Source of the DNA: an uncultured Candidatus Saccharibacteria bacterium
Lineage (GTDB): Bacteria > Patescibacteriota > Saccharimonadia > Saccharimonadales > Saccharimonadaceae
Assembly: GCA_964477195.1 (NCBI GenBank)
Contig: CAYZCX010000005.1
Coordinates: 11,832 to 75,831 of the forward strand
Length of the DNA: 64,000 bases
Reading direction: 5' to 3'
Shown: one piece after another, positions 3,185 to 56,340 of the stretch
Numbering within the stretch: the first letter of the stretch is position 1
Layout: each line of letters begins with the position of its first letter
The notes under the pieces: model-generated
The model's input: the letters and a program-made list of their open reading frames with translations, nothing else
What the model was told of the DNA's origin: nothing
The model's database searches: none
Position numbers and translations under genes: made by a program

Positions 3185-3213
3185 TTGACATAGTATATAG
3201 GCTATTTTAATAT
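3185..3213 (+). promoter_or_regulatory. sigma70-like promoter TTGACA-N17-TAATAT
   Basis: TTGACA 3185-3190, TAATAT 3208-3213, directly upstream of the GC-rich ORF 3251. Confidence 0.45.
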
Positions 3214-3250
3214 ACTACTCGAGGAAGACTACAAGAAGCTTGGAGACACT

Positions 3251-3685
3251 ATGGGTACGGTATTCACCGATGACCTGGGCAAGTTCTCTCAGGGTGGCTG
3301 CGTTATGTGCTGGCCATTTTGGGTAGTTCAGCATGGGAGCAAACGAACGTGGCATGTCGTCATCACATTCGACGGTTCTGAGTACGCAGTCTACGAGGAT
3401 GGTCACGATGCCCATGTGCCCTACAGGGCCTGGAGGCAGCGCGACTTCGTTGTGGTGCGAAACGCAGAGGACGAGAACAATCGCATCTCTGCCGTACTAC
3501 GCGTAAGTCAGTCCGGACAAGCAGTCGCGGTTATTCCCGTTTATCGGGATTATAGCCCCGAAACACACGATGCAGCCTCGTGGCACAGCGGGATGCGGAT
3601 CGTACAGAAAAGCCTCGAGGATGTCATCGTCAGGGAGTGGGACCCGGAGCGAGAATCCCTCTACATCTCCCAGAGGGACGACTAA
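3251..3685 (+). CDS. hypothetical protein (GC-rich ORFan)
   Basis: 144-aa ORF, RBS GGAGA 6 nt upstream, hairpin downstream; no motif recognised. Confidence 0.5.
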   Translation: MGTVFTDDLGKFSQGGCVMCWPFWVVQHGSKRTWHVVITFDGSEYAVYEDGHDAHVPYRAWRQRDFVVVRNAEDENNRISAVLRVSQSGQAVAVIPVYRDYSPETHDAASWHSGMRIVQKSLEDVIVREWDPERESLYISQRDD

Positions 3686-3694
3686 CCTCATCCA

Positions 3695-3733
3695 GTAAGG
3701 TGTGGCGCGCTTTTTCGCAGCGCCACACCTTAC
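3695..3733. terminator. 14-bp GC-rich hairpin (terminator-like)
   Basis: GTAAGGTGTGGCGC 3695-3708 / GCGCCACACCTTAC 3720-3733. Confidence 0.5.
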
Positions 3734-3749
3734 TGGAACAGTCCATATA

Positions 3750-3778
3750 TTGACACTTTTTAACTTCATTGATATATA
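3750..3778 (+). promoter_or_regulatory. sigma70-like promoter TTGACA-N17-TATATA
   Basis: TTGACA 3750-3755, TATATA 3773-3778. Confidence 0.45.
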
Positions 3779-3822
3779 TAAGGGTAATACACACCAAAAT
3801 AGACAAAGGAAAAGCGAGAACC

Positions 3823-4338
3823 ATGTCTGAATTACCCGAAAAACAAGTAAAGCGGCTGCGGTCGCTTATCCAGGAAGCAGAAACTAACTTGGCCGCCGCA
3901 AAAGAACTTCTTATTAGCATCGTCGGTGACGATGGGAATGTTGTGACGCCACGAAATAGCCAAGAAGAAGTTGGCGGAAAGGTCATCGAAGGCGTCTTTG
4001 ACGGCCAAATAATGATCGGGCCAGATGGAAAAAGCTATCCCGTTCCAGCCAATTACGCGAGTAAATCAAAGCTCGTAGAGGGCGATATACTCAAGCTCAC
4101 GATCGCTGATGACGGTGGATTTATCTACAAACAAATCGGCCCTGTCGTTCGCAAACAAATTATTGGAACGCTTGTCCAGCATGATGGGACCTACTACGTC
4201 GAAGCAAATGGCAAAGAATACCGAATTCTTCTTGCAAGCGTCACATACTTCCGACTCACAGAAGGAAACCAGGTGACCATTATTATCCCAGAAGATAATC
4301 CTGACGCCACATGGGCGGCAGTCGAAGCCTCTCTTTAG
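3823..4338 (+). CDS. hypothetical protein (N-terminal helix plus two beta-rich repeats)
   Basis: ATG at 3823 (MSELPEKQ) inside tracked ORF 3769-4338; stop lies 8 nt before the next start; no family recognised. Confidence 0.6.
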   Translation: MSELPEKQVKRLRSLIQEAETNLAAAKELLISIVGDDGNVVTPRNSQEEVGGKVIEGVFDGQIMIGPDGKSYPVPANYASKSKLVEGDILKLTIADDGGFIYKQIGPVVRKQIIGTLVQHDGTYYVEANGKEYRILLASVTYFRLTEGNQVTIIIPEDNPDATWAAVEASL

Positions 4339-4345
4339 GCTACTT

Positions 4346-5230
4346 ATGCTCGAGGCGGGCACATATCTCCTTGGAAATGTCGGCTTTAACAGTGCAGACA
4401 CGCCGACGCTCACTCTCCAGCGAGATGGTTATCTCGCGAATGTAGAACCCCTTCATCAAGAAATAAGTCTTGTATTCGATACCTCCGAGCGTCATTGCAT
4501 TGGTTGGGGTGATCTTGCGACAGGCGAACGCTTTGTTTGTCCCGAAAATGCCATTATTGCCGAAAAATACGAACAGTGCCCCGCATGTCAGCAGCGAACC
4601 GGATTTAATCCGGCATTTTATCATGCTACCAGTGTTTCTAAGAAGCAAGAAACACGCAATCAAGAGCCCCATCTTCTTTACCTTGCCTATTTCGGCCCCG
4701 GAGTTATAAAAGTGGGAATTTCACACGCAAAGCGGGGAAATGCTCGTCTTCTTGAACAAGGCGCACGAGCCGCGCTTATCCTCGAAACATTTCCTACGGC
4801 ACTTATCGCTCGTGATTATGAAGCCCAGATTGCTAAGCTCGAGAATATAGCCGAAACAATACAGCTTCGCAAAAAACAACAACTCCTTAGCACGTATGCT
4901 CACGACCAGGAAATTGCCCAAAATGAGCTGCTCAAGACAAAACAACGTATCGAAGAAACTCTTGGCGTTTCGTTTACAAATACAGACGTTCTTACTCTCG
5001 ATTCTGTCTTTTTTCCTCACGGAACACCTCTCCTTAAGAACGCCATCGATTGTACAGAGCAGAATCGCATATCTGGAAAGGTCGCTGGCATGTTAGGATC
5101 ATTTCTTTTTTGTACCTACGAAGACGAGCTCGTCTATATTCCTATCAAGAAATTCATTGGATATAAGGCATCTCTCGACTTCAAGATAACACCGCTTACA
5201 CTCCCTGCTCAGCAAATATCACTTTTCTAG
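4346..5230 (+). CDS. hypothetical protein, possibly DUF2797-like (CxxC zinc-ribbon plus KVGIS...R core)
   Basis: 294 aa with CPENA...CPACQQ cysteines and LYLAYFGPGVIKVGISHAKRGNARLLEQGA. The family assignment is from memory only. Confidence 0.55.
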   Translation: MLEAGTYLLGNVGFNSADTPTLTLQRDGYLANVEPLHQEISLVFDTSERHCIGWGDLATGERFVCPENAIIAEKYEQCPACQQRTGFNPAFYHATSVSKKQETRNQEPHLLYLAYFGPGVIKVGISHAKRGNARLLEQGARAALILETFPTALIARDYEAQIAKLENIAETIQLRKKQQLLSTYAHDQEIAQNELLKTKQRIEETLGVSFTNTDVLTLDSVFFPHGTPLLKNAIDCTEQNRISGKVAGMLGSFLFCTYEDELVYIPIKKFIGYKASLDFKITPLTLPAQQISLF

Positions 5231-5340
5231 GGAGATAACCTCAATAATTGCAAAAAAGAAGCTCCCCGTAGATTATTCGGTCATTCTAGAGTATGATGAA
5301 CAGCGTAACTTGCTGGCCAACAGACTGACCAGGAGCGACT

Positions 5341-5697
5341 GTGTCGATCATCGAAAACCCACCGACAGTGTGGTTTGACGCCTTCCATGGTGGATTCAAA
5401 ATCACCATGCTGAGAGATTCGTTTTTCATACAAGACGGTAAAATGGATGACTTCGTGGAAAAAGCCAAGCCCAGAAAAGGCGTGAAAGATGTCATTGTCG
5501 AGGAGGATGCCCCGACGCATATTACCTGGAAGATTACACTTGAGGAAGGGTACTATGAAAGGCCAATTCAGACCGCAGGACCGGTGGGTCTCGTGTTTGC
5601 GAGCAGCTCGCATCCGACGTGCTACGCAAAGCACTACCGCGTGAACAATAAAACAGTAACCCCCAAAGCTTGGTTCGAAGCGCTCTGCGGGATGTGA
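5341..5697 (+). CDS. hypothetical protein (GC-rich ORFan)
   Basis: GTG start preceded by AGGAGC; the opposite-strand ORF 5281-5634 is judged a shadow. Confidence 0.5.
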   Translation: MSIIENPPTVWFDAFHGGFKITMLRDSFFIQDGKMDDFVEKAKPRKGVKDVIVEEDAPTHITWKITLEEGYYERPIQTAGPVGLVFASSSHPTCYAKHYRVNNKTVTPKAWFEALCGM

Positions 5698-5751
5698 ACT
5701 GCATCCGCTTGTCAGTTGGTCTTATAACCGATTCGATCTACAACGTCTGGA

Positions 5752-6000
5752 GTGTCTATGTATTACGCGATTATCCCTCATGACTCTGGCGGGGCGATGC
5801 GTCCACGAGACGGCGAAGTTCACGGTGAATCTCCCGCAGAACTCTTGAAAAACGCGCGAGCGAAGGAAGGAAGCGGATGGTTTTTGTCGAGAATCGTCCA
5901 CGTAAATAACGATGACGACCGTGACACGACCACCCTCTGGCGAGAAGGGGCTGGGTGGTTGGAGGCAATCGATCGCTTCTTCCCGCCCGTGGGCAAGTGA
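5752..6000 (+). CDS. hypothetical small protein (GC-rich ORFan)
   Basis: 82-aa ORF (GTG 5752 or ATG 5758) followed immediately by a strong terminator. Confidence 0.45.
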   Translation: MSMYYAIIPHDSGGAMRPRDGEVHGESPAELLKNARAKEGSGWFLSRIVHVNNDDDRDTTTLWREGAGWLEAIDRFFPPVGK

Positions 6001-6004
6001 CGAC

Positions 6005-6055
6005 AGCCCGGTCTGGAGAATCTCAAGCCGATTCTCCAGACCGGGCTTATTTTTA
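6005..6055 (+). terminator. rho-independent terminator
   Basis: 18-bp stem AGCCCGGTCTGGAGAATC 6005-6022 / GATTCTCCAGACCGGGCT 6030-6047 followed by TATTTTT. Confidence 0.85.
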
Positions 6056-6129
6056 TATGTAAAATCACAACATCCGAATACTCATAAATATCGTACAATG
6101 GAATGAGAAAACGTGAGGGGAAATAAACA

Positions 6130-7539
6130 GTGTCAAAAGCGCTTTATAGAAAGTATCGGAGCAAATCACTTGACGAGATCGTCGGGCAAGGTCATGTTAC
6201 CGATGTGCTTTCACGAGCACTCAAACAAGGAAAAATCGCCCATGCCTATCTCCTGACTGGACCAAGGGGGGTTGGCAAGACGTCAATTGCGCGTATTTTG
6301 GCACACGAGATCAATGGCTTGACCTATGGCGATGACACGACTCATCTGGATATCATAGAGATCGACGCTGCGAGCAACAACGGGGTGGAAGACGTCCGAG
6401 ATCTTCGTGAAAAGGTGCAAATTGCGCCCGTCTCCGCGCGCAAAAAGATATATATCATCGACGAAGTTCACATGCTTTCAAAAGCAGCCTTCAATGCGCT
6501 CCTCAAAACACTTGAAGAGCCGCCTGAGCATGCTGTTTTTATCCTTGCCACAACCGATCTCGATAAACTCCCCGCGACCATTATCAGCCGCGTTCAACGG
6601 TTTCATTTTCGTTCAATCACCCCTGCAGATGCAGCAAAACATCTTCGACATATTGCCGACCAAGAAAAAATTGCCATCGACGACGAGGCACTTGCGCTCA
6701 TTGCCGAGCGAGGTGATGGAAGCTTTCGCGATAGCATTAGCTTGCTCGATCAGCTCAGTAGCCTGGCCGATGAAAAAAGTGGTATTACTCGCGAACTTGT
6801 CGAACGTGCTATCGGACTCGCCCCACAAGAGCAGGTACAAAAACTCATTGAAGCCCACCAAGCAAAAAACCTTGAGAGTATTATCACTCTTCTCTATGAT
6901 GCCGAGCAAAGTGGTATCCAGCCAAATGTCCTCACCGCTCAGTTAATCACGGCGATTCGAACTCATCTCGGTGAATCTCCGCAGCTTCTCTCTCTCTTGG
7001 ACAAGCTACTCGATGTCGCAAAGTCATCTCAGCCAAATGTGAAACTTCTCACTGTTTTGGCCGAAAATACTCAGCCGCCCAAGCCAAAAAGTATCGCTTT
7101 GGTTGCACCCACCCCCATGGTGAGTGCACCTGTTGCAGCGGTCAAAAAGCTCCCCGATGAACCAGTTGTCGTCAAGGAGGAGTCACTTGTTCCAATAGCC
7201 CCGCCAAAAAAGAAACAAACGGCACCTAAGGGCGAGCTCGACTGGGCGCAGCTCATAGAATATCTCCGCGTCCACTATCTCGCGACATACAGCGTCGTCT
7301 CAAAGTGCGGATACGAACTCGAGGGCGATATTCTTCGAATTTATACAATCAATGCTTTTTACAAGAAAAAGCTCGACGACGCAAAATATCGTACAAATAT
7401 TGCAGCGTCAATCAGCGAAATTGGTGCAGGCGAGTGGGAGATAGAGACAATTCCCACACCCCCACCGCCCAAAGATAGCCAAGCGGCGGCTGTTGCTGCT
7501 ATTATGGGAGGTGGAGAAGAGGTGAACGTGGAAGCATAG
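6130..7539 (+). CDS. dnaX: DNA polymerase III subunit gamma/tau
   Basis: YRKYRSKSLDEIVGQGHV, Walker A GPRGVGKTS, IIDEVHMLS, SRVQRF sensor; GTG start. Confidence 0.93.
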   Translation: MSKALYRKYRSKSLDEIVGQGHVTDVLSRALKQGKIAHAYLLTGPRGVGKTSIARILAHEINGLTYGDDTTHLDIIEIDAASNNGVEDVRDLREKVQIAPVSARKKIYIIDEVHMLSKAAFNALLKTLEEPPEHAVFILATTDLDKLPATIISRVQRFHFRSITPADAAKHLRHIADQEKIAIDDEALALIAERGDGSFRDSISLLDQLSSLADEKSGITRELVERAIGLAPQEQVQKLIEAHQAKNLESIITLLYDAEQSGIQPNVLTAQLITAIRTHLGESPQLLSLLDKLLDVAKSSQPNVKLLTVLAENTQPPKPKSIALVAPTPMVSAPVAAVKKLPDEPVVVKEESLVPIAPPKKKQTAPKGELDWAQLIEYLRVHYLATYSVVSKCGYELEGDILRIYTINAFYKKKLDDAKYRTNIAASISEIGAGEWEIETIPTPPPPKDSQAAAVAAIMGGGEEVNVEA

Positions 7540-11342: not shown

Positions 11343-11436
11343 ATTTCAGCATAGGCATTGCGAATTATCAAATACCTGATTTAATTGGTACAATGACCCT
11401 CGATAGCCGGGGCCAAGTATTAGGAAGGGAAATGCA

Positions 11437-11676
11437 ATGGCTGACACTCATATCGTCTTCGAGCACCACAACGAGGATTCGCTTGCTGGATACGACTCGA
11501 ATCATCGCACCCCCGAGCCCAAAGAGGTATTCAGTGGATCCGAGGGTGAATGCGAGGCGTACAGAACAAGAGTCTACGCAGAGTGTGACTTGAATGACCC
11601 CGGGCCGTACAGCAGACGTCCTCGTCTGGAGATCAGAGCAAAGCGATCTCGCTACAGCGAAACCGATCCCGCCTAA
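11437..11676 (+). CDS. hypothetical small acidic protein (GC-rich)
   Basis: 79-aa ORF, RBS AGGAAGGG, own terminator downstream. Confidence 0.4.
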   Translation: MADTHIVFEHHNEDSLAGYDSNHRTPEPKEVFSGSEGECEAYRTRVYAECDLNDPGPYSRRPRLEIRAKRSRYSETDPA

Positions 11677-11680
11677 TCAC

Positions 11681-11745
11681 AAGTCCGCCTCGAAAAGTCT
11701 CCCCCGAATAATTCGGTGTCACTACCTTTCGAGGCGGACTTTTTG
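11681..11745 (+). terminator. rho-independent terminator (long-loop hairpin)
   Basis: AAGTCCGCCTCGAAA 11681-11695 / TTTCGAGGCGGACTT 11727-11741 followed by TTTT. Confidence 0.7.
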
Positions 11746-11790
11746 ACGCCTCGAAATCATCCCTAATCTCTGTTAATTTTCTTTGCATTA

Positions 11791-11819
11791 TTGACTATAT
11801 AGTATTTTTATGATATAAT
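11791..11819 (+). promoter_or_regulatory. consensus sigma70 promoter TTGACT-N17-TATAAT
   Basis: TTGACT 11791-11796, 17-nt spacer, TATAAT 11814-11819, in AT-rich DNA abutting the GC-rich operon. Confidence 0.6.
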
Positions 11820-11877
11820 TCACCCTAGATCTTCGCTTATCCGAGCGTTGATGGCCCACGTCTCCTGAGGAGGAGCT

Positions 11878-14037
11878 ATGGCGGCGCTTCGCCACGCAGT
11901 TTTGTCTGCCACGGACGGTACACCGGAAACCCGGACCCCTGCCGTGCGCGGCGGCAAAGGTGCTGGCTTGGCGCTTCTGACAGATCTCGGTCTGCCGGTT
12001 CCGCCCAGCTTCACCTTGAATACCGGCGTCTGCAGAGCATATCTGCAGCACGACGAAATTCCGAATCGTATCTGGAGCCAGATTCAGCGAGAAATCGCCA
12101 AACTGGAGCGAGCTACCGGACGAACGTTCGGTGACCCGACGAACCCCCTGCTTGTTTCGGTCCGATCCGGAGCAGCGGAGTCGATGCCCGGCATGATGGA
12201 CACCATCCTGAATGTCGGTCTTGACCCCACCAACCTGGAAGGACTGCAGCGATGGGGTGGAAAGCGCTTCGCGCGCAATACCAGAGACCGCTTCGAGGAA
12301 CAGTGGAAGACAATTCGGAACCACATTTCTTACGAAATCAACTTCACCGACCCCTACGAACAACTCGGGACTGCCATCGTGGCCGTCTTGGAATCGTGGG
12401 GAAGTGAGCGAGCGCGTGCGTACCGCAAGCACCATGGCCTCTCCGATAACACGGGGACGGCCGTGACGGTGCAGGCAATGGTCTTCGGCAACGTCGACCA
12501 TACCTCCTGCACCGGTGTCGTGTTCAGTAGTGATGTTGCGACCGGGAATGAAGGTCTCTACGGAGAGTTTCTCACTCGGGCGCAGGGGGAAGACGTCGTT
12601 TCCGGCGTTCAGACCCCACTGCCGATCGCTGAGATGAAGACCTGGAACCCCCAGGTCTTCGAGCAGCTTTCCAGCATTGTCAGGCAACTGGCAGATCACT
12701 ACGATGACGTCGTGGATGTTGAGTTTACCGTCGAAAAGGGCGTGCTCTTCATCTTGCAGGTTCGCCGCGCCAAGCTTTCACCGCTGGCAAAGGTGACCCG
12801 CGCGGTACGCGACGTGTGGGCGAAGCGATGCACCAAGGAAAGCGCACTCAAGCGAGTGTCGTTGGCCGAGATTGGGTCGCTTCGTCAGCCGACTCTGGAA
12901 GTTCCGGAGGAGGCAGAAATCATCGCCAAGGGACTTCCTGCCTCTCCGGGGGCAGTCGTCGGCATGATCGCACGTGACGCGCCTACCCTCCGGCAGATCA
13001 TAGCCCGAGGAGAAGATGCAATTCTGGTTCGCCCCGACACGTCTCCCGAAGACTTGCCTGATATGATGGCCTCCAAGGCAATCGTGACGGCGAATGGTGG
13101 GAAAACGTGTCATGCTGCCGTGGTTGCCCGTGAACTCGGGCTTCCGGCAGTGGTCGGTACCGGCCCCCACCTGGGCATTCCTCTCACCGGGTATATCTCG
13201 GTTGATGGTGCCCAGGGAGTTGTGTACAAGGGAAGGTTGCCTCTGGTCGAGCCGACGCTCACCAAAGAGGTCAACCTTTTCCTGAAATGGCACAACGCAA
13301 AGGTCAACCCGCCGCGAATCGCTTTCGAGCGCGTCAACGAACAGCTGTCGGCAAACCAGCTCCTGAGCGACTTTTACTTGACGGACCTCATGGCCCGCCT
13401 CGCTGAAGGGTCGCCCCTGGAGCACGAAGCCGTCATGCTGCGGACAAAGACCCACCGTGAAATCGCGGAGGTTTTCGCGCTGTATCTTCTGATGGCAGCA
13501 TCGGGAGAATCTCGTCACTTCTACAGTGAGGCAGACAGCAGTGGCGCGACGGCACGCCTGGCAATGGCTCGACTGGATCGGACGATCCTTTCATCAAGTT
13601 ATGACCAGGGTCCAAGCGGGCGGTCGAAGATGCACGCCGATGTCGTAAGATTCCTTAAAGATCGTGATCTTGAATTTCTCGTTACTCATACGAGGGATCT
13701 TGTCACTGTTTTTAACGAAGGTTCATGGGATGGCGCATTCGGTGGCTCCAAATGGGGAGCTATTGCAAATGCCCTCCACAGCTTTCTTTCGGGAAAGTTG
13801 TCCGCGACGCTTTTTGTCGATCATGCGTTCGACCTTGAGCACAACGGCGGTAAGCTCTTCAACAAAAACCCGCTGTTCATGAGTGTGACCAATGAAAGTA
13901 GGTTGAAGCTTCAGCTCGATATCAAGAAAACGGTGTCTGCACCCGCAGAGTTGTACAGACGACTTTGCGAGTACGCAAGCCCCTCAAATGCAGTGGAAAC
14001 GCTGTGGGGGGTTGGCAAGCGTAAAAAAATGTGGTAA
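11878..14037 (+). CDS. PPDK-like dikinase: ATP-grasp plus phospho-His swivel domains with a non-canonical C-terminal domain
   Basis: GGKGAGL, NPLLVSVRSGAAESMPGMMDTILNVGL, GTAVTVQAMVFGN, AQGEDVVSG, LPASPGA, GGKTCHAAVVARELG (catalytic His). The last ~235 aa show no PEP/pyruvate-barrel motifs. RBS GAGGAGGAG. Confidence 0.85.
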   Translation: MAALRHAVLSATDGTPETRTPAVRGGKGAGLALLTDLGLPVPPSFTLNTGVCRAYLQHDEIPNRIWSQIQREIAKLERATGRTFGDPTNPLLVSVRSGAAESMPGMMDTILNVGLDPTNLEGLQRWGGKRFARNTRDRFEEQWKTIRNHISYEINFTDPYEQLGTAIVAVLESWGSERARAYRKHHGLSDNTGTAVTVQAMVFGNVDHTSCTGVVFSSDVATGNEGLYGEFLTRAQGEDVVSGVQTPLPIAEMKTWNPQVFEQLSSIVRQLADHYDDVVDVEFTVEKGVLFILQVRRAKLSPLAKVTRAVRDVWAKRCTKESALKRVSLAEIGSLRQPTLEVPEEAEIIAKGLPASPGAVVGMIARDAPTLRQIIARGEDAILVRPDTSPEDLPDMMASKAIVTANGGKTCHAAVVARELGLPAVVGTGPHLGIPLTGYISVDGAQGVVYKGRLPLVEPTLTKEVNLFLKWHNAKVNPPRIAFERVNEQLSANQLLSDFYLTDLMARLAEGSPLEHEAVMLRTKTHREIAEVFALYLLMAASGESRHFYSEADSSGATARLAMARLDRTILSSSYDQGPSGRSKMHADVVRFLKDRDLEFLVTHTRDLVTVFNEGSWDGAFGGSKWGAIANALHSFLSGKLSATLFVDHAFDLEHNGGKLFNKNPLFMSVTNESRLKLQLDIKKTVSAPAELYRRLCEYASPSNAVETLWGVGKRKKMW

Positions 14038-14067
14038 AGTAGTTATCGACCGAAAGGAAGTGAGGTC

Positions 14068-14928: not shown

Positions 14929-14989
14929 TACAGCTTTTTGCTAGAAAAGATAAAGGAAATATTTTAAAATATTAATTATCACTTCTAAG

Positions 14990-15540
14990 CAGTGCCGATT
15001 AACTCTTTTGTGACGACAGGTCCACTTTAACGGGCCTGAGCAGAGAGTTAGTAGGGAGCGGGGACATCGAGAGTCATCTCGTTGTCGATGCGCCGTTTCC
15101 ACCTCCCTATTGCGGTGAAGTTTGGGAGCTAGGGAAGAATCGACACCGCACAAGATTCTTCCGAGACTGCTCACACAGTCTAAAAAAAACAAAGTGGCGG
15201 ACCTCTTCGTTAAGGGCACTTACAGGCGCTACACACGCTTCGTGAGTGAATGACAGTGGAGCTAACCGGACTCTCTTTTTGAGCAGTTAGCGTTGAAGCA
15301 GTCATGAGGGATCTCCCCGGTGGAGGTCTTAAAGAAAAGCGGTTTGCACCCGCACCGGTGTGTAGTAACGGCGACGTTCATACGCCAAGGGAAGTATGAA
15401 CATGAGCTTGGCACTGGCACTCTCGCAGGAGAGTCGCCTAGGCTGCGGACCATTCCAACTTATAGGGATGCTTCAGCGACAACGGTGACAGTTAGATCTC
15501 CCAGTAGTTGTTTAATTTGATGATGTATAATACTTTAAAG
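14990..15540. other. ORF-free, hairpin-dense tract (candidate structured RNA or long 3' UTR)
   Basis: Stops in all frames. Helices at 15052-58/15103-09 (enclosing 15065-70/15085-90), 15133-41/15154-62, 15164-68/15176-80, 15310-16/15322-28, 15376-83/15394-401 and 15419-24/15429-34. Confidence 0.3.
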
Positions 15541-15565
15541 TAGATTACTCGCAGTAAACAAATTA

Positions 15566-31729: not shown

Positions 31730-31744
31730 AGAGATGACCAAAAG

Positions 31745-35545: not shown

Positions 35546-35574
35546 CCCCCTCGTGGAAACCATTCACGAGGGGG
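35546..35574 (+). terminator. 10-bp GC hairpin after PBP gene
   Basis: CCCCCTCGTG 35546-55 / CACGAGGGGG 35565-74. Confidence 0.55.
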
Positions 35575-35642
35575 CTATCCCCTGAATTTATTTTTGCTAC
35601 AATAAAAAAGCATCTCGTACTACGAAGAGTGAGGAAGCAAGA

Positions 35643-44396: not shown

Positions 44397-45506
44397 TCAA
44401 GGATGCCAGGGTGCAGAGCTGGGACTTCCAGGGCACGACGTGTGGTTCGTGTCATTCATCTTCCCCTTGAAGCGCATCCACATGGTCTCATGGTCAACAC
44501 CGTCATAGTTGCAGACGATGGCCTGGCTGCGGATGCTCCGCCCACTGATCACTGGATAATCACGAATGGCAGGAAACAGCTTGTTCTGAATTCCAGCGTG
44601 CGCGTAGCCGTTCACCGGGTGGTCGTAATCAGCCGTGTATTCGCCAGCAAGCACCATGAGGACATGATTCTTGTCACGCGCCAGCCAATCCGCCAACATC
44701 GCGGACTTGTTCGGGTAAGCCTTGTCGCATCCTCCGTTGTAGTAAGCGTCTTTGTTACCGGGATCGATCAGCAGGATGAAGTTCACAGCCTCCCAGCCCG
44801 ATGGCCGCGCCGTCAGGTACATGATCGGCCCATTGCGACCCGAGCTCCAGCCAGCCAGCGTGGTAATGCGCTTGTTTGCCGGAGACTGCGGGACACTGTT
44901 GCTGGCGTTGCAGCCGGGCTGCCAGACCTTCTGGTCTAGTGTGACCGTCGCCGGTGAAGGCGCGCTCACCCAGTTGTAGGCGCTGTCGAACGGCCAGCGA
45001 TTCTTGTAAACCTTGATATCCGGCCCGTCGTACGGTGAATAGTACAGCGACCCACCGCCCGGAAGAGGCTGCGAACTGTCACACGGCGGCACACCGGGCG
45101 CCACTTGACCAGGACCCGTTCCGTCATTGACAAAATGGGCATTGATCCACCCCTGATTGGTACGACCGCCCGGAGCCGTTGGACGGCTCACATTGTTGGC
45201 CTTGTACCAAATGGTGTTACTGCCACCATCCCGCCGCGGCACGTTGGTGCCCCTGGACCAGCACTGAAGCTGCACGCGGTTGCCCGCATACACACCCCAA
45301 CCGCTCACCCGACTGGTGTCATCCCAGTTGGGGCTGTTGCGGAAGTACACACCATCCGGCGTATACTCAGATGTATTCATCACCGAATACGTCGGTCCGG
45401 CTGCGATAGCCGGCGTGCTCACAGCAAGCAGTCCGCCGCCCACCATGACCAGTCCGGCCATGAGAATGACGAACGGATGCCGCAGCCGCGCAAACAGTGC
45501 GCTCAT
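44397..45506 (-). CDS. secreted protein, SH3b-like N-terminal domain plus unknown Cys-containing domain (GC-rich)
   Basis: Signal peptide ...LLAVSTPAIAAGP. GVYAGNRVQLQCWSRG...IWYKAN...GWINAHFV resembles bacterial SH3. Six Cys in the mature part. Confidence 0.65.
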   Translation of the reverse strand: MSALFARLRHPFVILMAGLVMVGGGLLAVSTPAIAAGPTYSVMNTSEYTPDGVYFRNSPNWDDTSRVSGWGVYAGNRVQLQCWSRGTNVPRRDGGSNTIWYKANNVSRPTAPGGRTNQGWINAHFVNDGTGPGQVAPGVPPCDSSQPLPGGGSLYYSPYDGPDIKVYKNRWPFDSAYNWVSAPSPATVTLDQKVWQPGCNASNSVPQSPANKRITTLAGWSSGRNGPIMYLTARPSGWEAVNFILLIDPGNKDAYYNGGCDKAYPNKSAMLADWLARDKNHVLMVLAGEYTADYDHPVNGYAHAGIQNKLFPAIRDYPVISGRSIRSQAIVCNYDGVDHETMWMRFKGKMNDTNHTSCPGSPSSAPWHP

Positions 45507-46480: not shown

Positions 46481-46624
46481 CTATTTAGTACTTTCTGTGT
46501 TCCTTTTATGTTTTACAAGAAGAACGATTCCCCAGATAATCGCCACCAAAACGAGAAGCCAGAATATAATTACTAAATACGGATATATGAGACCGAGCAG
46601 GTTGGCGATGAGACTTTCATTCAT
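46481..46624 (-). CDS. small membrane protein (47 aa), below ORF-track cutoff
   Basis: MNESLIANLLGLIYPYLVIIFWLLVLVAIIWGIVLLVKHKRNTESTK; RBS AGGAGA 7 nt upstream. Confidence 0.4.
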   Translation of the reverse strand: MNESLIANLLGLIYPYLVIIFWLLVLVAIIWGIVLLVKHKRNTESTK

Positions 46625-46700
46625 GTCTTTCTCCTATTATAATTTCTTAATTATAGCGTGGGATGGCAGCAAAGAAAACTTCACTGCCATCCCACCTCCA

Positions 46701-47087
46701 TCAGGAGGGCGGGGTCTCCTGCCGCTTGCACTTCCATCCGAAGATGTTGTTGTCGTGTACCGTTGCGACCGAACCCGGGTACTTCCAGTCACAGTATCCC
46801 TGGATGTCCAGCGAACCGGCGATCGAGAAACTCGGAACCGGGAAGGAGATGTCGTAACAGCGCAGGCTGTACGGGTCCAACGGGTTCAGAGTGATGGCCG
46901 CGAAGTTGCCCTGGTGGGCGCAGACCTCCGCAGGCATCGCCGGGTAAAGCACGTAGTAGCCACCTTCGGCCGCTGCCGGTGCAGCGGTCGCGACACTGGC
47001 GGCAACCGTGATACCAGCGGCAGCGGCCAGCATGACGAGACCTCGCTTGATGCGCCGGCCGAGGCCAGTACGCAGCTTGGTGTTCAT
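46701..47087 (-). CDS. small secreted Cys-containing protein (GC-rich)
   Basis: MNTKLRTGLGRRIKRGLVMLAAAAGITVAASVATAAPAAA signal peptide; ~90-aa mature part with 4 Cys. Confidence 0.55.
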   Translation of the reverse strand: MNTKLRTGLGRRIKRGLVMLAAAAGITVAASVATAAPAAAEGGYYVLYPAMPAEVCAHQGNFAAITLNPLDPYSLRCYDISFPVPSFSIAGSLDIQGYCDWKYPGSVATVHDNNIFGWKCKRQETPPS

Positions 47088-47280
47088 TCCACACTCCATG
47101 GCGTGTGTCGGATGTGAACGTTAGGAGATTAATGTCCAGGGACTCGGTCGGATCGGCCGATGAGTATAAACAATACAAACGCGAATGGATTCCGCGCTTG
47201 CTCTCACTGGTACGAAATTATGAAGGATGGAGTTTACTTTTGCAAGAGACCTAGGCCTTTTGGACGTCCGATCCTATTTA

Positions 47281-48064
47281 TCAGTTACTCGCAGACTTCC
47301 ATGAGTGTCCTCCCAGAAGTCGAACGCGATAAATCTCCCGCGGAAGTCCTTCGGCACCTGGCTCTCTAGGTGTGCGACTATGCAAGAATCTGCCGTTATC
47401 CCAGGCGACGACAAGACCAGGATTCCAAGGGATTCGTCGCACGTGGCTAGGATCTTGCATACTACTTTCCATTCGTCCAACTGTCGCGTCAGCCTCTTGC
47501 TGGGTAATTTCTTCGGGGCGGTGAAGTGTCCATGTTTCGCCATATGGCCCCATGCTCCAATACGATAAGTGATCTTGACCATCGTATTGACTAAGAATCG
47601 GGGTACTACCGACGCCTCCATTATTGGCAAGTTCTTGCTTCGAGACAGCAAGTATCTCCCGATCCCTGTCCGTAAGAGCGGCAGCGACCCGCGCCATAGC
47701 ACAAAGGAGCGTATCACTCCCGCTTCCCGGCGGTAATGCCTCTTTGCATCCGAGCATAGTGATACGCGGGCGTTCGTCAGGCGGCAAGAGGGGCCAGATC
47801 CACGTGCATACCCAATGGCTCGCCAAACCCTATGTCATCCGTCTTCAGCACGACACCTTTATAAGCTACCTCGTTCATCGGAGGAGATTCTGGCATAGGT
47901 TCACCTATCTGAGCACCGAGGTCGTAGAGCGCCGCTCGTGTCATTGCCCCCTCTAAGCGTGCGATGGCAACGCCTTCAGTTCGTAAATCATCAAGCATAC
48001 GATCGGGATCTGGGACAAGATCGGCCGCTGGACTTATTTCGAGATCCCTAAAAAAACTTGGCAT
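47281..48064 (-). pseudogene. TauD/TfdA-family Fe(II)/2OG dioxygenase interrupted by a 1-nt frameshift
   Basis: The N-terminal frame ends ...GEPLGMHVDLAPLAA* (HxD). The second frame continues LPPDERPRITMLGCKEALPPGSGSDTLL ... WNPGLVVAWDNGRFLHSRT. The frames overlap at 47777-47826 around a G4/C4 run. Confidence 0.65.
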
Positions 48065-48200
48065 TATTGAGACTACCTTTCGCGTTATTGCGTTAAAAAC
48101 ATACACACATCATACCATAAGCACTTCTAATCACCAGATTATCGCGCATAGCCTACAATTAAACTATAATGACCTTAGGATTATAAGCAGGAAAAATATC

Positions 48201-49461: not shown

Positions 49462-50142
49462 ATGAACAAAACGGAGCTTGTCTGGAGGGAGCGCACCTCG
49501 GAGTTAGAATCTATAGCTTCGATATGGACATGTAATGCATCGGAGGTGACATCGCGTACCGTGCTGGCCGATCCATGTATTTCTATCGTCTTCGTAAAAA
49601 GTGTCGACAGTGCAGAAATAATACTACGCGGGCCCGAGACTAAACCGCGCGACGAAGTACTTTTACCAGGCTATACCTGGACGGCGATTCGCCTGCAGCC
49701 AGGTGTGCAGTTGAAAAATTTCCCCGTTCAACGGTTTATTGACGACTTCCTGGCATTACCCGCCAACGGCCAAGGACAGTTTGAATTTGAGGGGGCTCAA
49801 CTACAATTTCCTCACTTTCATAATGCCGAATTACTTATTAAACAAATGGATGAGTTGGGCTACATAAGTGGCAAAATTATAGATAGTAAGGAACACCCTA
49901 AGCAAGGTCTCTCGTCCAAAAGCTACTCTCGCCTAGTTAAGCGAACTACCGGTCTATCGCCCTACAAGCTCCTTCAGTTACAACGGATACATGAGGCGCT
50001 ACAGTTACTAAAACAAGGCATGTCGGCAACAACCGTCGCGGCGGATCTCGGCTTCGTCGACCAGGCCCATCTCACTCGCGCCGCAAAGCAATTCTTAGGC
50101 CATACGCCCAAAGAACTTCTCAATCTCCCTCAAAAACCATAA
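49462..50142 (+). CDS. AraC family transcriptional regulator
   Basis: C-terminal double HTH: SYSRLVKRTTGLSPYKLLQLQRIHEAL..L......VAADLGFVDQAHLTRAAKQFLGHTP. Confidence 0.8.
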   Translation: MNKTELVWRERTSELESIASIWTCNASEVTSRTVLADPCISIVFVKSVDSAEIILRGPETKPRDEVLLPGYTWTAIRLQPGVQLKNFPVQRFIDDFLALPANGQGQFEFEGAQLQFPHFHNAELLIKQMDELGYISGKIIDSKEHPKQGLSSKSYSRLVKRTTGLSPYKLLQLQRIHEALQLLKQGMSATTVAADLGFVDQAHLTRAAKQFLGHTPKELLNLPQKP

Positions 50143-50169
50143 AAATGTCCAAAATATCCAATATTTATA
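50141..50169 (+). promoter_or_regulatory. 29-nt operator/promoter-like element, copy 1
   Basis: AAAAATGTCCAAAATATCCAATATTTATA; contains the direct repeat TCCAAAAT/TCCAATAT; 28/29 identical to 52285-52313. Confidence 0.5.
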
Positions 50170-52284: not shown

Positions 52285-52313
52285 AAAAATGTCCAAAATG
52301 TCCAATATTTATA
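52285..52313 (+). promoter_or_regulatory. 29-nt operator/promoter-like element, copy 2
   Basis: AAAAATGTCCAAAATGTCCAATATTTATA upstream of the second RibD_C paralog. Confidence 0.5.
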
Positions 52314-53178: not shown

Positions 53179-54072
53179 TTGAGAAACATTTTGCAAGCCA
53201 CCACGGGATTGACTGTGGGAGCGGGGGCCATTGTCGCGATCGACAGTAGCCTTGGCATATTGAGAGGAGGCGATAGCAACCCAAAGATCGTACGGATTGA
53301 GCGTCAACCAGACGCACCAAATCGTCTCATCGTCCTCTTCCACGGCTACAATGGTCACGGCAAATCTCTTGTTTGGCTTCTGGGCCCCACTTTGTCGGCC
53401 TACGGTACCGTTGTAGGGTTCGAGCCCACAGGTGCTCGGTACGACAACGAAAAAGTCCTGGATGCTGCCGATGAGACAGTCAGTAGCTATTCTTCAGACG
53501 AGATCATAGCATACGGTGAATCATTTGGCAGCATGACAGTAGCCGACTGGCTACGCCGGCACCCCTCGCTCTTTCTGAAGTCCTGGGTACTGAACGCATC
53601 CCCGAGCGGATTGAGTGATGCTCTAGGTGCCGGTAGTTGGGTGAAGGTTTTTGACTGGCTCCATGGTGGACCTCTTTCGACCGCACTGCTTCGCTTGGGG
53701 CAGCGCCACGGAATGAGCTTGCCATCACTCGAGCCCAATGCAAGTGTCGAAGCTATGGAGCTAGCGTGTCAGTTGGCGCTCCAGATCACGGCGCCGATGA
53801 TATTCGGCGAGGTAAGCTACATTAGGAACTTCACTCCGCCACGTCCTGGTGAATTCGCCGGGCGAGTAGAAGCCTCGCGGTATATCCATGCACCTGCTCC
53901 TCGGGGTCACGATGGGCGCATTAGGGTAGGCGACGCGTCTCCGGTCTGGAAATCCGCTCTCGGTGCTGCGAACTTCCAGAATATCGTTGTCGATTCTTGG
54001 GAAGAAGAAACTCACACTCCAACCGCGGAACGTCCGAGCGGTGTCCTCGATCAGCTTATTGCCGTATTGTAG
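53179..54072 (+). CDS. alpha/beta hydrolase fold protein (GC-rich)
   Basis: LIVLFHGYNGHG and nucleophile elbow GESFGS (GxSxG); TTG start after GAGGTG. Confidence 0.6.
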   Translation: MRNILQATTGLTVGAGAIVAIDSSLGILRGGDSNPKIVRIERQPDAPNRLIVLFHGYNGHGKSLVWLLGPTLSAYGTVVGFEPTGARYDNEKVLDAADETVSSYSSDEIIAYGESFGSMTVADWLRRHPSLFLKSWVLNASPSGLSDALGAGSWVKVFDWLHGGPLSTALLRLGQRHGMSLPSLEPNASVEAMELACQLALQITAPMIFGEVSYIRNFTPPRPGEFAGRVEASRYIHAPAPRGHDGRIRVGDASPVWKSALGAANFQNIVVDSWEEETHTPTAERPSGVLDQLIAVL

Positions 54073-54077
54073 TAGAC

Positions 54078-54120
54078 GAAAGCCCCGTCTCCATTAGTCA
54101 GGTGGAGACGGGGTTTCATC
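54078..54120 (+). terminator. rho-independent terminator
   Basis: CCCCGTCTCCA 54083-93 / TGGAGACGGGG 54103-13 followed by TTT. Confidence 0.75.
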
Positions 54121-54484
54121 ATACTTGCACTATTTTCAAATATATTTCTATAGTATAATCACGTTTAAGTAACCGGGATTGGAGCACCATAGTATTGGTG
54201 AGTATGTCTCTATTTTGAGAGCTTGTCCCTGTTGCGGATCGTTAACATCCAAAACTGTAATTAGGAGTGGCCGTTATGGCACGTAATGTGCAGCTCGTGG
54301 TCATCGACCCGCAGTACGACTTCATGGACTACCCCGACTCGGCGCTGCCGGTGCCGGGTGCTCACGACGACATGGTGCAGCTGGCCGCGATGGTCGACCG
54401 TATCGGCAACAAGCTGGATGACATCCACGTGACGCTCGACAGCCACCAGCTCGTTGACGTCGGCCACCCCACTTTCCAAACCGC

Positions 54485-54515
54485 AAAAAGCACCTTCTTA
54501 CAAAGGTGCTTTTTG
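54485..54515 (+). terminator. rho-independent terminator
   Basis: AAAAAGCACC 54485-94 / GGTGCTTTTT 54505-14. Confidence 0.7.
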
Positions 54516-54533
54516 ATAATTTCCATGGCTGGG
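54516..54533. repeat. partial duplicate of tRNA-Gln 3' end plus flank (att-like direct repeat)
   Basis: ATAATTTC(C)ATGGCTGGG at 54516-54533 versus ATAATTTCATGGCTGGG at 55208-55224: 17 matches with one 1-nt indel. Confidence 0.4.
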
Positions 54534-54647: not shown

Positions 54648-55055
54648 TCACGAAAACGCGTAAGGCATGAGTTCATCTGCCTCTATCACCTCTAGCTTCC
54701 CACTATTATCTATTATGACCTTCAACGGCGTATTATAGCTAAAAAGCTGGCGGCACCATCCACAGCCATTAACAACTTCAAATGAGTCGGTTCCAGGGAA
54801 ATACTTTACGCCGACAACAGTGTCAAAATCATGCTCACCGTCGTTCAAGGCGGCATATATAGCCATTGTTTCGGCACAGGCACTGGTATTACGCACACGG
54901 TATTTCAGATTAATTCCTGTATATATCTTGCCGCTTTTTGTTCGTAATGCACCGCCGATACTAATAAAGTCTTCTTGAAACCGTTCTTTCGCATGTTTGG
55001 CCGCAATTTCAATAAGCTCAGTATCTTTAGGGTTTAGGGATGATTTATCTTGCAT
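54648..55055 (-). CDS. cdd: cytidine deaminase (small homotetrameric type)
   Basis: Zinc motifs CAETMAI (CAE) and GCGWCRQ (PCGxCRQ-like); 135 aa. Confidence 0.85.
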   Translation of the reverse strand: MQDKSSLNPKDTELIEIAAKHAKERFQEDFISIGGALRTKSGKIYTGINLKYRVRNTSACAETMAIYAALNDGEHDFDTVVGVKYFPGTDSFEVVNGCGWCRQLFSYNTPLKVIIDNSGKLEVIEADELMPYAFS

Positions 55056-55162: not shown

Positions 55163-55196
55163 CCAAAAATACCTCATCCTACAGAGGTATTTTTGG
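55163..55196 (-). terminator. hairpin terminator downstream of tRNA-Gln
   Basis: CCAAAAATACCTC 55163-75 / GAGGTATTTTTGG 55184-96. Confidence 0.7.
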
Positions 55197-55216
55197 AATT
55201 GATAAATATAATTTCA

Positions 55217-55291
55217 TGGCTGGGGTGGAGGGATTCGAACCCCCGAATGCATGGACCAAAACCATGTGCCTTACCACTTGGCGACACCCCA
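55217..55291 (-). tRNA. tRNA-Gln (anticodon UUG)
   Basis: Reverse complement is TGGGGTG TC GCCAAGTGGTAAGGC A CATGG TTTTGGT CCATG CATTC GGGGG TTCGAAT CCCTC CACCCCA G CCA. It folds as a cloverleaf with U1-A72 and is close to E. coli tRNA-Gln. Confidence 0.93.
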
Positions 55292-55428
55292 ATAGCCCTG
55301 TTAGTATACCATATTCTCCATTTTTTAGACTAGCTTCTCATAGGTCAAGGTTATGAAAAAGTGATTAAGCTCACGAAATTGTAATCATAATTGATTTTCT
55401 AGAAATCAGGCCTTGGTATACTGGTTAT

Positions 55429-55869
55429 GTGACTACTGCACTTGAAAATGAGTTGTGCCCTCGCTGTGGACAGCGAGACAATCGGGCGGTGACCGTTACC
55501 GCGGTTTTCGTTCGCCACGGGAAGATCCTTTTGACAAAGCGAGAGGAGGAGCCGCACGCAGGCCACTGGTCGCTTCTCAGCGGATATGTCGAGAAAGGCC
55601 AAACGACAGTTCAGGCAGCCATCGCCGGAAGCTGGGAAAAAGCGCGCATGTACGGCCAAAATCCTGTGCTCATCGGGGTTTTCGACGACCCTGGTCGTCA
55701 TCCCAAGCAGGAGATTTCGGTTGCTTACGCTTTTGCCGCCGACGATGGAGCCCACTTTTCCACGGGCGATCCACGAGAGGCCGAGGTGGGGTGGTTCGAT
55801 CCCCACAGCTTGCCGCCACTCGCGTTCGACCACGCCAAGATCATCGCCACACTGGTGGCGCGTCAGTAA
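55429..55869 (+). CDS. NUDIX-fold protein with degenerate Nudix box (GC-rich)
   Basis: GHWSLLSGYVEKGQTTVQAAIAGSWEKA aligns to GGxxExGEx7REx2EExG, but most acidic positions are replaced; GTG start. Confidence 0.6.
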   Translation: MTTALENELCPRCGQRDNRAVTVTAVFVRHGKILLTKREEEPHAGHWSLLSGYVEKGQTTVQAAIAGSWEKARMYGQNPVLIGVFDDPGRHPKQEISVAYAFAADDGAHFSTGDPREAEVGWFDPHSLPPLAFDHAKIIATLVARQ

Positions 55870-55918
55870 TCACCAGTACCCGTTTGCAGCCAGCAGGCGG
55901 GTACCCCTACCAAATATA

Positions 55919-55947
55919 TTGACTTTATATTCAAAAAGTGTTATGAT
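55919..55947 (+). promoter_or_regulatory. sigma70-like promoter TTGACT-N17-TATGAT
   Basis: TTGACT 55919-24, TATGAT 55942-47. Confidence 0.5.
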
Positions 55948-55993
55948 CGCTTAGCCAAAACAGGCTATTCATCTGAAGAAGGGAAGCTTCAGG

Positions 55994-56284
55994 GTGGCAA
56001 CGTTACCCAGTGAGTTTTTCAGGATGCGCAACATGGAAGATCCGCGTCGGCTCGAGCGCTCCATCAGGGAGCTCGACGCTCCCGGCACTGCCGTGGAGAT
56101 ACTCGAGGCCAAGGTCGAGGCATACCTGGCCCGTGCTCCGCGGAGTGCTGAGCCCGTTGAAGTTCCGATGGACAACGAGCCCATGGGCGTCCGTGGCGCC
56201 GTTATCAGCAAGTACGAGCATCTGACCTGGCTGGTCGAAGACATCGGCGGCCCGCCGGGCAAGCGGTGCCTCCGCTTCTCCTGA
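55994..56284 (+). CDS. hypothetical protein (GC-rich ORFan)
   Basis: 96-aa ORF followed by a +strand terminator; several overlapping frames are open here, so the exact start is uncertain. Confidence 0.45.
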   Translation: MATLPSEFFRMRNMEDPRRLERSIRELDAPGTAVEILEAKVEAYLARAPRSAEPVEVPMDNEPMGVRGAVISKYEHLTWLVEDIGGPPGKRCLRFS

Positions 56285-56293
56285 TATCAGATG

Positions 56294-56331
56294 AATAAGG
56301 CCGATCCCATCGCGGATCGGCCTTATTTTTT
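56294..56331 (+). terminator. rho-independent terminator
   Basis: AATAAGGCCGATCC 56294-307 / GGATCGGCCTTATT 56314-27 followed by TTTT. Confidence 0.8.
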
Positions 56332-56340
56332 GGCCTCATT

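Follow-up and report, generated by a model that had tools for sequence, protein, structure and literature searches.

The DNA analysed here is a 64,000-nt stretch (the window, C5:11832-75831) of the 1.065-Mb, 36-contig draft genome of an uncultured Candidatus Saccharibacteria bacterium (G000); it is punctuated by ten blocks of raised G+C, which are probably small islets of horizontally exchanged accessory genes, drawn mostly from a Saccharimonadia/Patescibacteria pool and, for a few families, from Actinomycetota. The islets, mostly of one gene each, lie in the intergenic spacers of an otherwise collinear chromosome and in its one variable zone, and each would form a stand-alone unit in which a GC-rich open reading frame (ORF) lies between AT-rich, native-like spacers with a sigma-70-type promoter and often a terminator. 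The pool from which these genes (the cassettes) come would be patchy and circulate for the most part within Saccharimonadia and the rest of the Patescibacteria, which include organisms of 55-59% G+C. Gain and loss would proceed by DNA uptake and recombination in the flanking DNA, with no dedicated mobility genes, and the GC excess would represent a partly ameliorated donor signature.

A GC-rich gene class scattered through the genome

The G+C content is 47.6% in the genome and 47.2% in the window outside the ten blocks, with block means of 52-60% (Table 1). A preliminary description of this DNA had put the blocks at 55-73%; its counts on single lines of sequence are exact (44/60 at line 14401, 27/60 at 16801 and 25/60 at 21301), but the range fits the higher end of single 60-nt lines and not the block means. 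Three blocks (5341-6000, 31160-32237 and 37713-38276) are just mildly raised, within the top 9-12% of genome windows of the same length, while the remaining seven lie within the top 0.04-4%. Genes were called by a codon-usage ORF scorer trained on long ORFs, and the G+C at third codon positions (GC3) of the cassette ORFs is 0.56-0.82 against a genome mode of 0.45. Genome-wide, the GC3 distribution shows a separate minor mode at about 0.60-0.65 besides this main one, and 8.5% of the genes of at least 150 amino acids (aa) have a GC3 of at least 0.6; the GC-rich pattern therefore belongs to the whole genome and not to the window alone. The 137 ORFs with GC3 >= 0.6 fall into 108 islets, most of them single genes (86/108) or doublets (17/108), which total 85 kb, or about 8% of the genome; their median length is 540 bp, and none exceeds the 3.5 kb of the PPDK module inside the window.

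The tetranucleotide (TETRA) profile of this class correlates with that of the backbone at r = 0.77, compared to 0.95 for backbone subsamples of the same size and 0.86 between the backbones of G000 and the same-genus genome G001. By composition and k-mer signature alike, the GC-rich genes thus depart from the backbone in the manner taken as a mark of horizontal gene transfer (HGT), and the separation of the blocks by GC3 and k-mer profile on which the preliminary description depended is confirmed. The antisense shadow ORFs that it had reported over the GC-rich blocks are present as well: at the phosphatase gene of islet 3 the gene caller had taken the shadow, and the plus-strand ORF 46497-47117 is the shadow of the 132-aa gene, whose minus strand has homologues. 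The minus-strand 218-aa ORF of islet 4 has 25 distant homologue clusters and is therefore regarded as a real gene. A GC3 of at least 0.6 is a cheap marker of accessory, and possibly host-interaction, genes in this lineage.

Accessory genes in an otherwise collinear chromosome

Syntenic DNA was compared from three same-genus genomes (G001, G003 and G004), G001 being later compared whole; class-level relatives of G000 have genomes of 0.6-1.7 Mb. A homologue in G001 (at least 40% identity, at least 60% cover) exists for 32% of the GC-rich genes and for 74% of the backbone genes (Fisher p = 1e-19), which bears out the uneven presence of the cassettes in sister genomes. The window is collinear with G001 from 336 to 35498 save for two extra stretches, at about 11405-15560 and 31044-33170. 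At the first of these, recR and a DHH-family gene stand about 160 bp apart in G001, G003 and G004 and are separated by an insertion of about 4.15 kb in G000; at the second, the interval between a P-type ATPase gene and the gene of a class A penicillin-binding protein (PBP) has about 2.1 kb extra in G000 and about 400 bp in G001. When a remnant of the 189-aa gene of islet 4 was sought in this G001 spacer, as a sign of loss there instead of gain in G000, the alignment obtained was too weak to be of use. Collinearity is then lost over a variable zone in which GC-rich islets alternate with normal-GC accessory genes, and returns at 56341; the relatives L041 and L042 have similar zones with their content shuffled.

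Patchy presence or insertion into conserved synteny, a second mark of HGT, was found for the cassettes with two exceptions. The PBP gene is syntenic in G001 (67-71% aa identity) and is a member of the backbone and no recent capture; the 144-aa ORFan of islet 1 has a syntenic copy in G001 that is 80% identical and also GC-rich (GC3 0.69), and was not found in G003 or in the metagenome contig L040. Of the piecemeal capture that had been proposed for the blocks, the accessory and scattered nature of the genes and two clean insertions thus speak in favour, but the synteny of these two genes does not. The PPDK-like protein of islet 3 is absent from 20 relatives. In the same number, searched with 17 cassette proteins concatenated as one query, no homologue was found for the 118-aa ORF of islet 2, any of the three ORFs of islet 4 (189, 122 and 218 aa), the TauD-type ORF or the 187-aa ORFan; the last was absent from viral contigs too, and a pattern scan of metagenomes for the 189-aa ORF was empty. 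The 82-aa ORF of islet 2 has a weak 41% match at the syntenic G001 position.

Some islet genes have decayed, as seen in the isochorismatase and TauD fragments. The TauD/TfdA-type gene (47281-48106, minus strand) is probably a frameshifted pseudogene: its ORF 47281-47826 represents the C-terminal 60% of the protein, and an overlapping upstream ORF (47777-48106, minus strand) continues in another frame, which Pfam did not confirm as the N-terminal half.

Origins of the cassette families

The metagenome contig L040, which is as close to G000 as G001 is (DnaB 97% identical), carries the PPDK-like and phosphatase genes at the same recR|DHH locus with 67 and 57% aa identity, respectively, and a G+C of 0.56-0.63. 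A second contig repeats this arrangement, and in four further families of Saccharimonadia the pair likewise stands as a GC-rich islet. The PPDK-like protein has thousands of homologues; among the best 120, the named ones belong to Saccharibacteria, Parcubacteria, Kaiserbacteria, Moranbacteria, the "Patescibacteria group", Melainabacteria-type cyanobacteria and Binatia; none of these named entries is actinobacterial, most entries being nameless. The 3' end of the PPDK/phosphatase insertion (14941-15560) is an ORF-free stretch of about 600 nt, rich in hairpins and matching no Rfam family at gathering score; the L040 spacer at the corresponding position is of similar length and gives no blastn alignment with G000.

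The alpha/beta hydrolase has about 10 homologues among 5.8 billion proteins. At the two loci examined, L041 and L042, its orthologues are 72-75% identical, GC-rich and placed in accessory-gene zones that share homologues with the variable zone of the window; one of them is on the same 315-kb contig as a 67%-identical homologue of the PPDK-like protein (P0093). The isochorismatase fragment is 84-85% identical to an intact 314-aa homologue in G001; at 69-80% identity follow genes from a further family of Saccharimonadia, itself of 55-59% G+C, which makes GC-rich Saccharimonadia plausible as an alternative source. The 132-aa secreted protein has homologues with 35-50% identity in other Saccharimonadia (G006, G009, G122 and G134), and the 96-aa ORF is 49-56% identical to a G003 sequence, which supports its plus strand. 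The 218-aa family comprises 26 clusters among 1.8 billion representatives; the one relative that could be read, on the Saccharimonadia-like contig L093, is 27% identical and again forms a GC-rich islet (0.59 vs 0.48).

The preliminary description had instead named the actinobacterial host as the obvious donor. Repeated direct capture from such a high-GC host, followed by the evolution of native promoters, is an unlikely general explanation. It draws on the TETRA profile, by which the GC-rich class is closer to Actinomycetota loci than the backbone is (0.69 vs 0.47), on the enrichment of consensus promoters, on the BTAD/SARP-type regulator of the variable zone and on the NUDIX hydrolase, which matches sequences from Saccharimonadia as well as from Streptomyces plasmids and phages (28-40%); the 369-aa secreted-protein family, moreover, is mainly actinobacterial outside Saccharibacteria and GC-rich only relative to saccharibacterial backbones. 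However, the closest homologues of the PPDK-like protein, phosphatase, hydrolase, isochorismatase, 132-aa protein and 218-aa ORF are saccharibacterial or belong to the candidate phyla radiation, and a sample of 60 evenly drawn Actinomycetota genomes, searched with the concatenated query at limited sensitivity, returned only generic NUDIX and short phosphatase P-loop matches. The GC3 of the cassettes (0.56-0.8) is below that of the nine actinobacterial homologues of the 369-aa protein (0.64-0.97), the lower ends of the two ranges overlapping, and the nearest relatives of even the 369-aa protein are Saccharimonadia. Published work points the same way, with little host-derived HGT reported: TM7x gave no strong signal of it (PMC7427843), and HGT into Patescibacteria, to which up to 13% of genome length has been attributed, is mostly intra-phylum, with Actinomycetota as rare donors (PMC12455944).

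Actinomycetota appear as closest homologue or sister for the 369-aa family alone, at a deeper node, and not for the PPDK-like protein, hydrolase, isochorismatase, phosphatase, 132-aa protein or 218-aa ORF. As the preliminary description had itself held that closest homologues in the lineage of the housekeeping genes would speak against its proposal, and as the nearest homologues of most cassettes do lie in Saccharimonadia/Patescibacteria, the host is unsupported as general donor, with the 369-aa family as the exception. This takes some force from the view that Saccharibacteria acquire genes chiefly from the actinobacteria that host them; here most exchange seems to stay within Saccharimonadia. 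For the cassettes, neither phages nor plasmids are supported as a source: at limited sensitivity, collections of both yielded only generic matches (NUDIX, phosphatase and isochorismatase) and left the ORFans unmatched.

The 369-aa secreted-protein family

The 369-aa protein, which could act at the host interface, has 88 homologues. In G001, a copy with 85% identity lies on a different contig and is again found in a GC-rich islet. Species-representative genomes were scanned with a pattern derived from a 13-sequence alignment of the family; nine of the ten loci retrieved are from Actinomycetota (Solirubrobacterales, Conexibacter, Micromonospora, Plantactinospora and Mycobacteriales) and one is from Saccharibacteria. 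The G+C of the gene does not exceed that of its locus in Actinomycetota and is 9-12 points above it in Saccharibacteria. In the tree, the sequences of G000, G001, L012, P0004 and P0027 form, together with four unplaced metagenome proteins, a well-supported clade of nine rows that is sister to a clade holding Solirubrobacterales, while a second Saccharibacteria sequence is sister to Micromonospora/Plantactinospora. Gene and organism phylogenies, compared for this family alone, are therefore in conflict, Saccharibacteria appearing in two places among Actinomycetota. On the strength of this tree, which requires two or more transfers between phyla, the family would clearly derive ultimately from Actinomycetota. 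Its closest sequences (56-85% identity) are nevertheless saccharibacterial, those of Actinomycetota being 30-47% identical, and any actinobacterial transfer must therefore be old or indirect. The contigs of P0004 and P0027 (L038 and L039) look saccharibacterial, and the copies in G001, L012, L038 and L039 are all GC-rich in Saccharimonadia-like DNA.

Two related GC-rich Saccharibacteria contigs, L033 and L038, carry a member of the family (3957-4979 and 5943-7055, respectively) beside the same neighbourhood of seryl-tRNA synthetase (SerRS) and PMSR genes. In the tree, one of these members groups with Micromonospora and the other, in a separate clade, with G000, which suggests replacement at a fixed locus. 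SerRS identity to G000 is 63% for L033, a metagenome-assembled genome of Candidatus Saccharibacteria, and 61% for L038; the latter contig has 58% G+C and also holds a WhiB-family gene (PF02467, 2450-2752). WhiB regulators are typical of Actinomycetota and their phages.

Stand-alone architecture of the islets

An upstream gap of at least 60 nt of their own is found for 81% of the GC-rich genes and 38% of the backbone genes. The G+C of these upstream spacers is 0.40 for the former and 0.39 for the latter; the excess is restricted to ORF bodies. A match of at least 10/12 to TTGACA-N16-18-TATAAT lies upstream of 31% of GC-rich against 13% of backbone genes (p = 7e-5), and a stem-plus-T-run terminator downstream of 35% against 22% (p = 0.008). 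Within the window, the near-consensus boxes listed in the preliminary description at 3185, 11791, 31051 and 55919 are exactly where it had placed them, and its terminators after most blocks are borne out by hairpins downstream of about 8 of 12 cassette ORFs. The sequences of these hairpins are unrelated to one another; several have a T-run like intrinsic terminators, and others, such as that at 3691-3737, did not score as terminators. Promoter-like boxes also occur upstream of backbone genes, for example at 109, 19368 (minus strand) and 42232 (minus strand), and the difference is therefore one of enrichment, not of exclusive possession. The promoter enrichment is compatible with the "promoter domestication" that had been suggested for captured genes. 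The islets would thus give a picture of accessory-gene renewal in an episymbiont of about 1 Mb by single-gene, self-transcribed units and not by large mobile islands.

Age of the islets and persistence of their high G+C

At four-fold degenerate sites, backbone orthologues of G000 and G001 are near saturation (median identity 0.34 vs 0.26 expected, excess 0.11). The GC-rich genes common to both genomes have a median excess of 0.21 (p = 7e-6 vs backbone) with a bimodal distribution, and about half of them therefore have a more recent ancestry than the chromosomes; their sequences imply either that they were exchanged once the lineages had separated or that both genomes received them from one recent donor.

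Several points weigh against horizontal exchange as the explanation of the islets. The ORF scorer is simple, and some of the GC-rich "genes" may be shadow ORFs; the concatenated queries scored 2-14 candidates per genome, which leaves the absences among the 20 relatives soft; and most metagenomic homologues were placed taxonomically by their gene neighbours and the G+C of their contigs and not by name. The competence gene comEC (Competence, PF03772) was not found in the 36-contig draft of G000, while 17 of the 20 relatives have it. It is present in the same-genus genomes G001 (C2:286038-286829) and G004 and undetected in G002, G003 and G009; its G001 neighbourhood has no counterpart in G000, and none of seven multi-transmembrane (TM) ORFs of G000 inspected by eye, with no Pfam scan, is ComEC-like. 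Experiments have shown Saccharibacteria to be naturally competent (PMC10633639), but with comEC undetected the uptake route is without support in this genome itself. Finally, in about half of the GC-rich genes common to G000 and G001, synonymous sites are as saturated as in the backbone, and yet a G+C at four-fold sites (GC4) of about 0.6-0.8 is kept in both genomes. The PBP is the clearest such case (four-fold identity 0.32; GC4 0.58 in G000 and 0.68 in G001). By a rough two-state estimate of amelioration, an ancestral GC excess would by now have decayed to about one third, which is hard to square with a GC4 of 0.7-0.8; either these genes are independently acquired xenologues or their G+C is maintained.

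The second option, that the GC-rich genes are long-standing residents whose composition is actively maintained, by GC-biased gene conversion (gBGC) in recombining accessory loci or by codon selection, is given a low probability as a general account. Besides the saturated genes, it is favoured by family members with 27-57% aa identity that are GC-rich in every Saccharimonadia backbone examined and by the restriction of the excess to ORFs, with upstream spacers as AT-rich as native ones. It fits poorly with a class that is strongly depleted in shared genes, has a distinct tetranucleotide signature and includes at least two clean insertions, and the saturated pairs with an aa identity of 51-69% could be xenologous instead of orthologous. 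To our knowledge, reported effects of gBGC in bacteria are far smaller than a GC3 shift from 0.45 to 0.65-0.8, which counts further against maintenance. It is conceivable, at similarly long odds, that Saccharimonadia have in common a "floating" set of accessory cassettes, each of one gene, with ORF bodies that would be kept GC-rich in any backbone, by gBGC tied to frequent recombination or by selection, and with AT-rich promoter and terminator spacers of native type that would travel along or be rebuilt around them; three results leave room for this, as saturated genes are still GC-rich, the excess is limited to the ORF and consensus promoters are enriched. The persistence of high G+C across backbones is a small question of amelioration versus maintained composition.

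Mobility and possible element remains

The preliminary description had seen no integrase, transposase or inverted ends. Pfam indeed found no integrase or transposase in the large majority of called window ORFs, about seven being outside the direct scan (among them 336-860, 889-1266, 1532-2554 and 62724-63998), and the sole tyrosine recombinase found genome-wide (PF00589) is on another contig, C22. Islet ends have no shared flanking or terminal repeats, no shared repeat family and no attC-like sites. Only one feature of the window resembles a trace of mobility: at tRNA-Gln, the 3' end of the tRNA gene and its flank are repeated, possibly as an att-like footprint. The two copies, each preceded by a terminator hairpin, bracket 690 bp of normal-GC DNA with a cytidine/dCMP deaminase gene (54648-55055), next to the truncated isochorismatase gene. 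Window islets are otherwise not tRNA-associated, and the homologous islets in G001, L041 and L042 have no tRNA gene nearby.

That the islets are decayed integrative elements (tRNA-targeting islands, prophages or integron-like cassettes) stripped of their mobility genes is very unlikely. The tRNA-Gln repeat beside a truncated gene, the TauD and isochorismatase fragments and the clustering of islets in the 21-kb variable zone are what would be expected of such remains, but the scanned window ORFs hold no mobility genes, there are no common terminal repeats or attC-like sites, phage matches are generic, the DNA between the repeats is of normal G+C, and the 108 islets consist for the most part of lone genes dispersed through the backbone. 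An artefact of assembly or binning, with chimeric joins of high-GC community DNA, could be imagined for short islets in a 36-contig draft and is scarcely credible: backbone DNA flanks the islets to the left and right within their contigs, independent assemblies from other samples (G001, L012, L038-L042 and L093) have these genes as GC-rich islets too, and the PPDK module recurs at an identical locus.

Comparison with known systems

Read as exchanged accessory genes, the islets are an example of well-documented patescibacterial gene exchange and no new kind of element. They resemble the transferred genes and small islands described across Patescibacteria (mSystems 2025, PMC12455944), which are likewise scattered, occupy several percent of streamlined genomes, are exchanged mostly within the phylum with rare donors from other phyla and have few mobility genes; the islets differ from these in the sharp G+C excess of their ORF bodies, in the enrichment of promoters and terminators and in families that are GC-rich across many saccharibacterial backbones. 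With classical genomic islands (tRNA-associated, integrase-bearing, 10-200 kb) they share atypical G+C, accessory content and presence or absence among close relatives, and the variable zone abuts tRNA-Gln with its short 3'-end repeat, a possible parallel; in contrast, the islets have a median of 540 bp or one gene and a maximum of 3.5 kb, lack an integrase and common direct repeats and are mostly not tRNA-adjacent. Like integron cassettes, they are small, mostly single-ORF accessory units with no mobility genes of their own; but integron cassettes are promoterless, arrayed in tandem beside intI and bounded by attC, while the islets are scattered and have their own promoters and terminator-like hairpins. 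As for HGT in host-associated Saccharibacteria (McLean et al. 2020, PMC7427843), sources are varied and bulk transfer from the actinobacterial host has left little trace in both cases; there, specific adaptive genes were described (ldh, nrdD, CRISPR), whereas here a genome-wide compositional class is seen in an environmental-type genome of about 1.07 Mb.

Features of the window

The features of the window are collected in Table 1, with product assignments made by Pfam.

Table 1. GC-rich blocks, islet genes, signals and neighbouring features (positions in the window; box positions on the minus strand are given 5' to 3').
Feature	Position	Strand	G+C	GC3	Remarks
Block	3251-3685		0.561		
Block	5341-6000		0.521		
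Block	11437-14928		0.576		
Block	31160-32237		0.520		
Block	32439-36032		0.541		
Block	37713-38276		0.520		
Block	44397-45506		0.596		
Block	46701-48064		0.555		
Block	53179-54476		0.544		
Block	55429-56284		0.584		
Islet 1, sigma-70-like box	3185-3213	+			TTGACA-17-TAATAT
Islet 1, 144-aa ORFan	3251-3685	+	0.56	0.66	no Pfam family
Islet 1, hairpin	3691-3737	+			18 bp, perfect
Islet 2, 118-aa ORF	5341-5697	+	0.50		no Pfam family
Islet 2, 82-aa ORF	5752-6000	+	0.56		no Pfam family
Islet 2, terminator	6005-6047	+			18-bp GC stem
Islet 3	11405-15560	+			ends in about 600 nt of non-coding DNA
Islet 3, 79-aa ORF	11437-11676	+			no Pfam family
Islet 3, hairpin	11681-11741	+			
Islet 3, sigma-70-like box	11791-11819	+			TTGACT-17-TATAAT with TG
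Islet 3, PPDK-like protein	11878-14037	+			PPDK_N and PEP-utilizer
Islet 3, phosphatase	14068-14928	+			DSP-type Cys phosphatase
Islet 4	31044-33170				
Islet 4, sigma-70-like box	31051	+			TTGATA-17-TATAGT
Islet 4, 189-aa ORF	31160-31729	+			no Pfam family
Islet 4, terminator	31744-31769				bidirectional
Islet 4, 122-aa ORF	31869-32237	+			no Pfam family
Islet 4, 218-aa ORF	32439-33095	-			no Pfam family
Islet 4, sigma-70-like box	33176-33149	-			upstream of the 218-aa ORF
Islet 4, terminator	32401-32375	-			of the 218-aa ORF
Class A PBP	33243-35498	+	0.55	0.61	transglycosylase and transpeptidase (Pfam)
Variable accessory zone	35523-56340	both			about 21 kb; about 25 kb of unrelated DNA in G001
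187-aa ORFan (islet)	37713-38276	-		0.65	no Pfam family
Sigma-70-like box	38338-38310	-			11/12 match; promoter of the 187-aa ORFan
Terminator	37687-37661	-			GC stem; of the 187-aa ORFan
369-aa secreted protein	44397-45506	-	0.596	0.71	N-terminal signal/TM segment; no Pfam family
132-aa small secreted protein	46701-47099	-	0.63	0.77	no Pfam family
Terminator	47201-47175	-			of the TauD-type remnant
TauD/TfdA-type dioxygenase remnant	47281-48106	-			ORF 47281-47826 covers profile positions 108-266/267
Alpha/beta hydrolase	53179-54072	+	0.555		Pfam
Isochorismatase-type gene	54267-54476	+		0.82	first ~70 codons only; cut where GC-rich DNA stops
tRNA-Gln	55217-55291	-			3' end and flank in an imperfect direct repeat of about 19 nt (~54510-54533 and 55203-55226)
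NUDIX hydrolase	55429-55869	+	0.59		Pfam
Sigma-70-like box	55919-55947	+			TTGACT-17-TATGAT; upstream of the 96-aa ORF
96-aa ORF	55994-56284	+	0.64		no Pfam family
Normal-GC genes of the variable zone					BTAD/SARP-type regulator, His phosphatase, cupin, DUF218, two glyoxalases, SRAP, EEP nuclease, AraC regulator, two RibD_C proteins, MFS transporter, deaminase (Pfam)

The BTAD (SARP-like) regulator of the variable zone, which has an OmpR-type winged helix (36153-36953, minus strand), has a G+C of 0.51, near that of the backbone, and was not found in the 100-kb syntenic G001 stretch to which the comparison was limited. Outside the window, a 647-aa ORF with 14 TM segments (C14:12854-14797) shows the hallmarks of haem-copper oxidase subunit I. 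Upstream of rplJ/rplL, an ordinary Rfam L10_leader match lies at 135-270. In the variable zone, a 29-nt direct repeat (28/29 identical, AAAAATGTCCAAAATRTCCAATATTTATA) is found at 50141-50169 and 52285-52313, upstream of each RibD_C paralogue; one copy adjoins the AraC-type regulator gene (49462-50142), and the repeat looks like a shared operator or promoter element.

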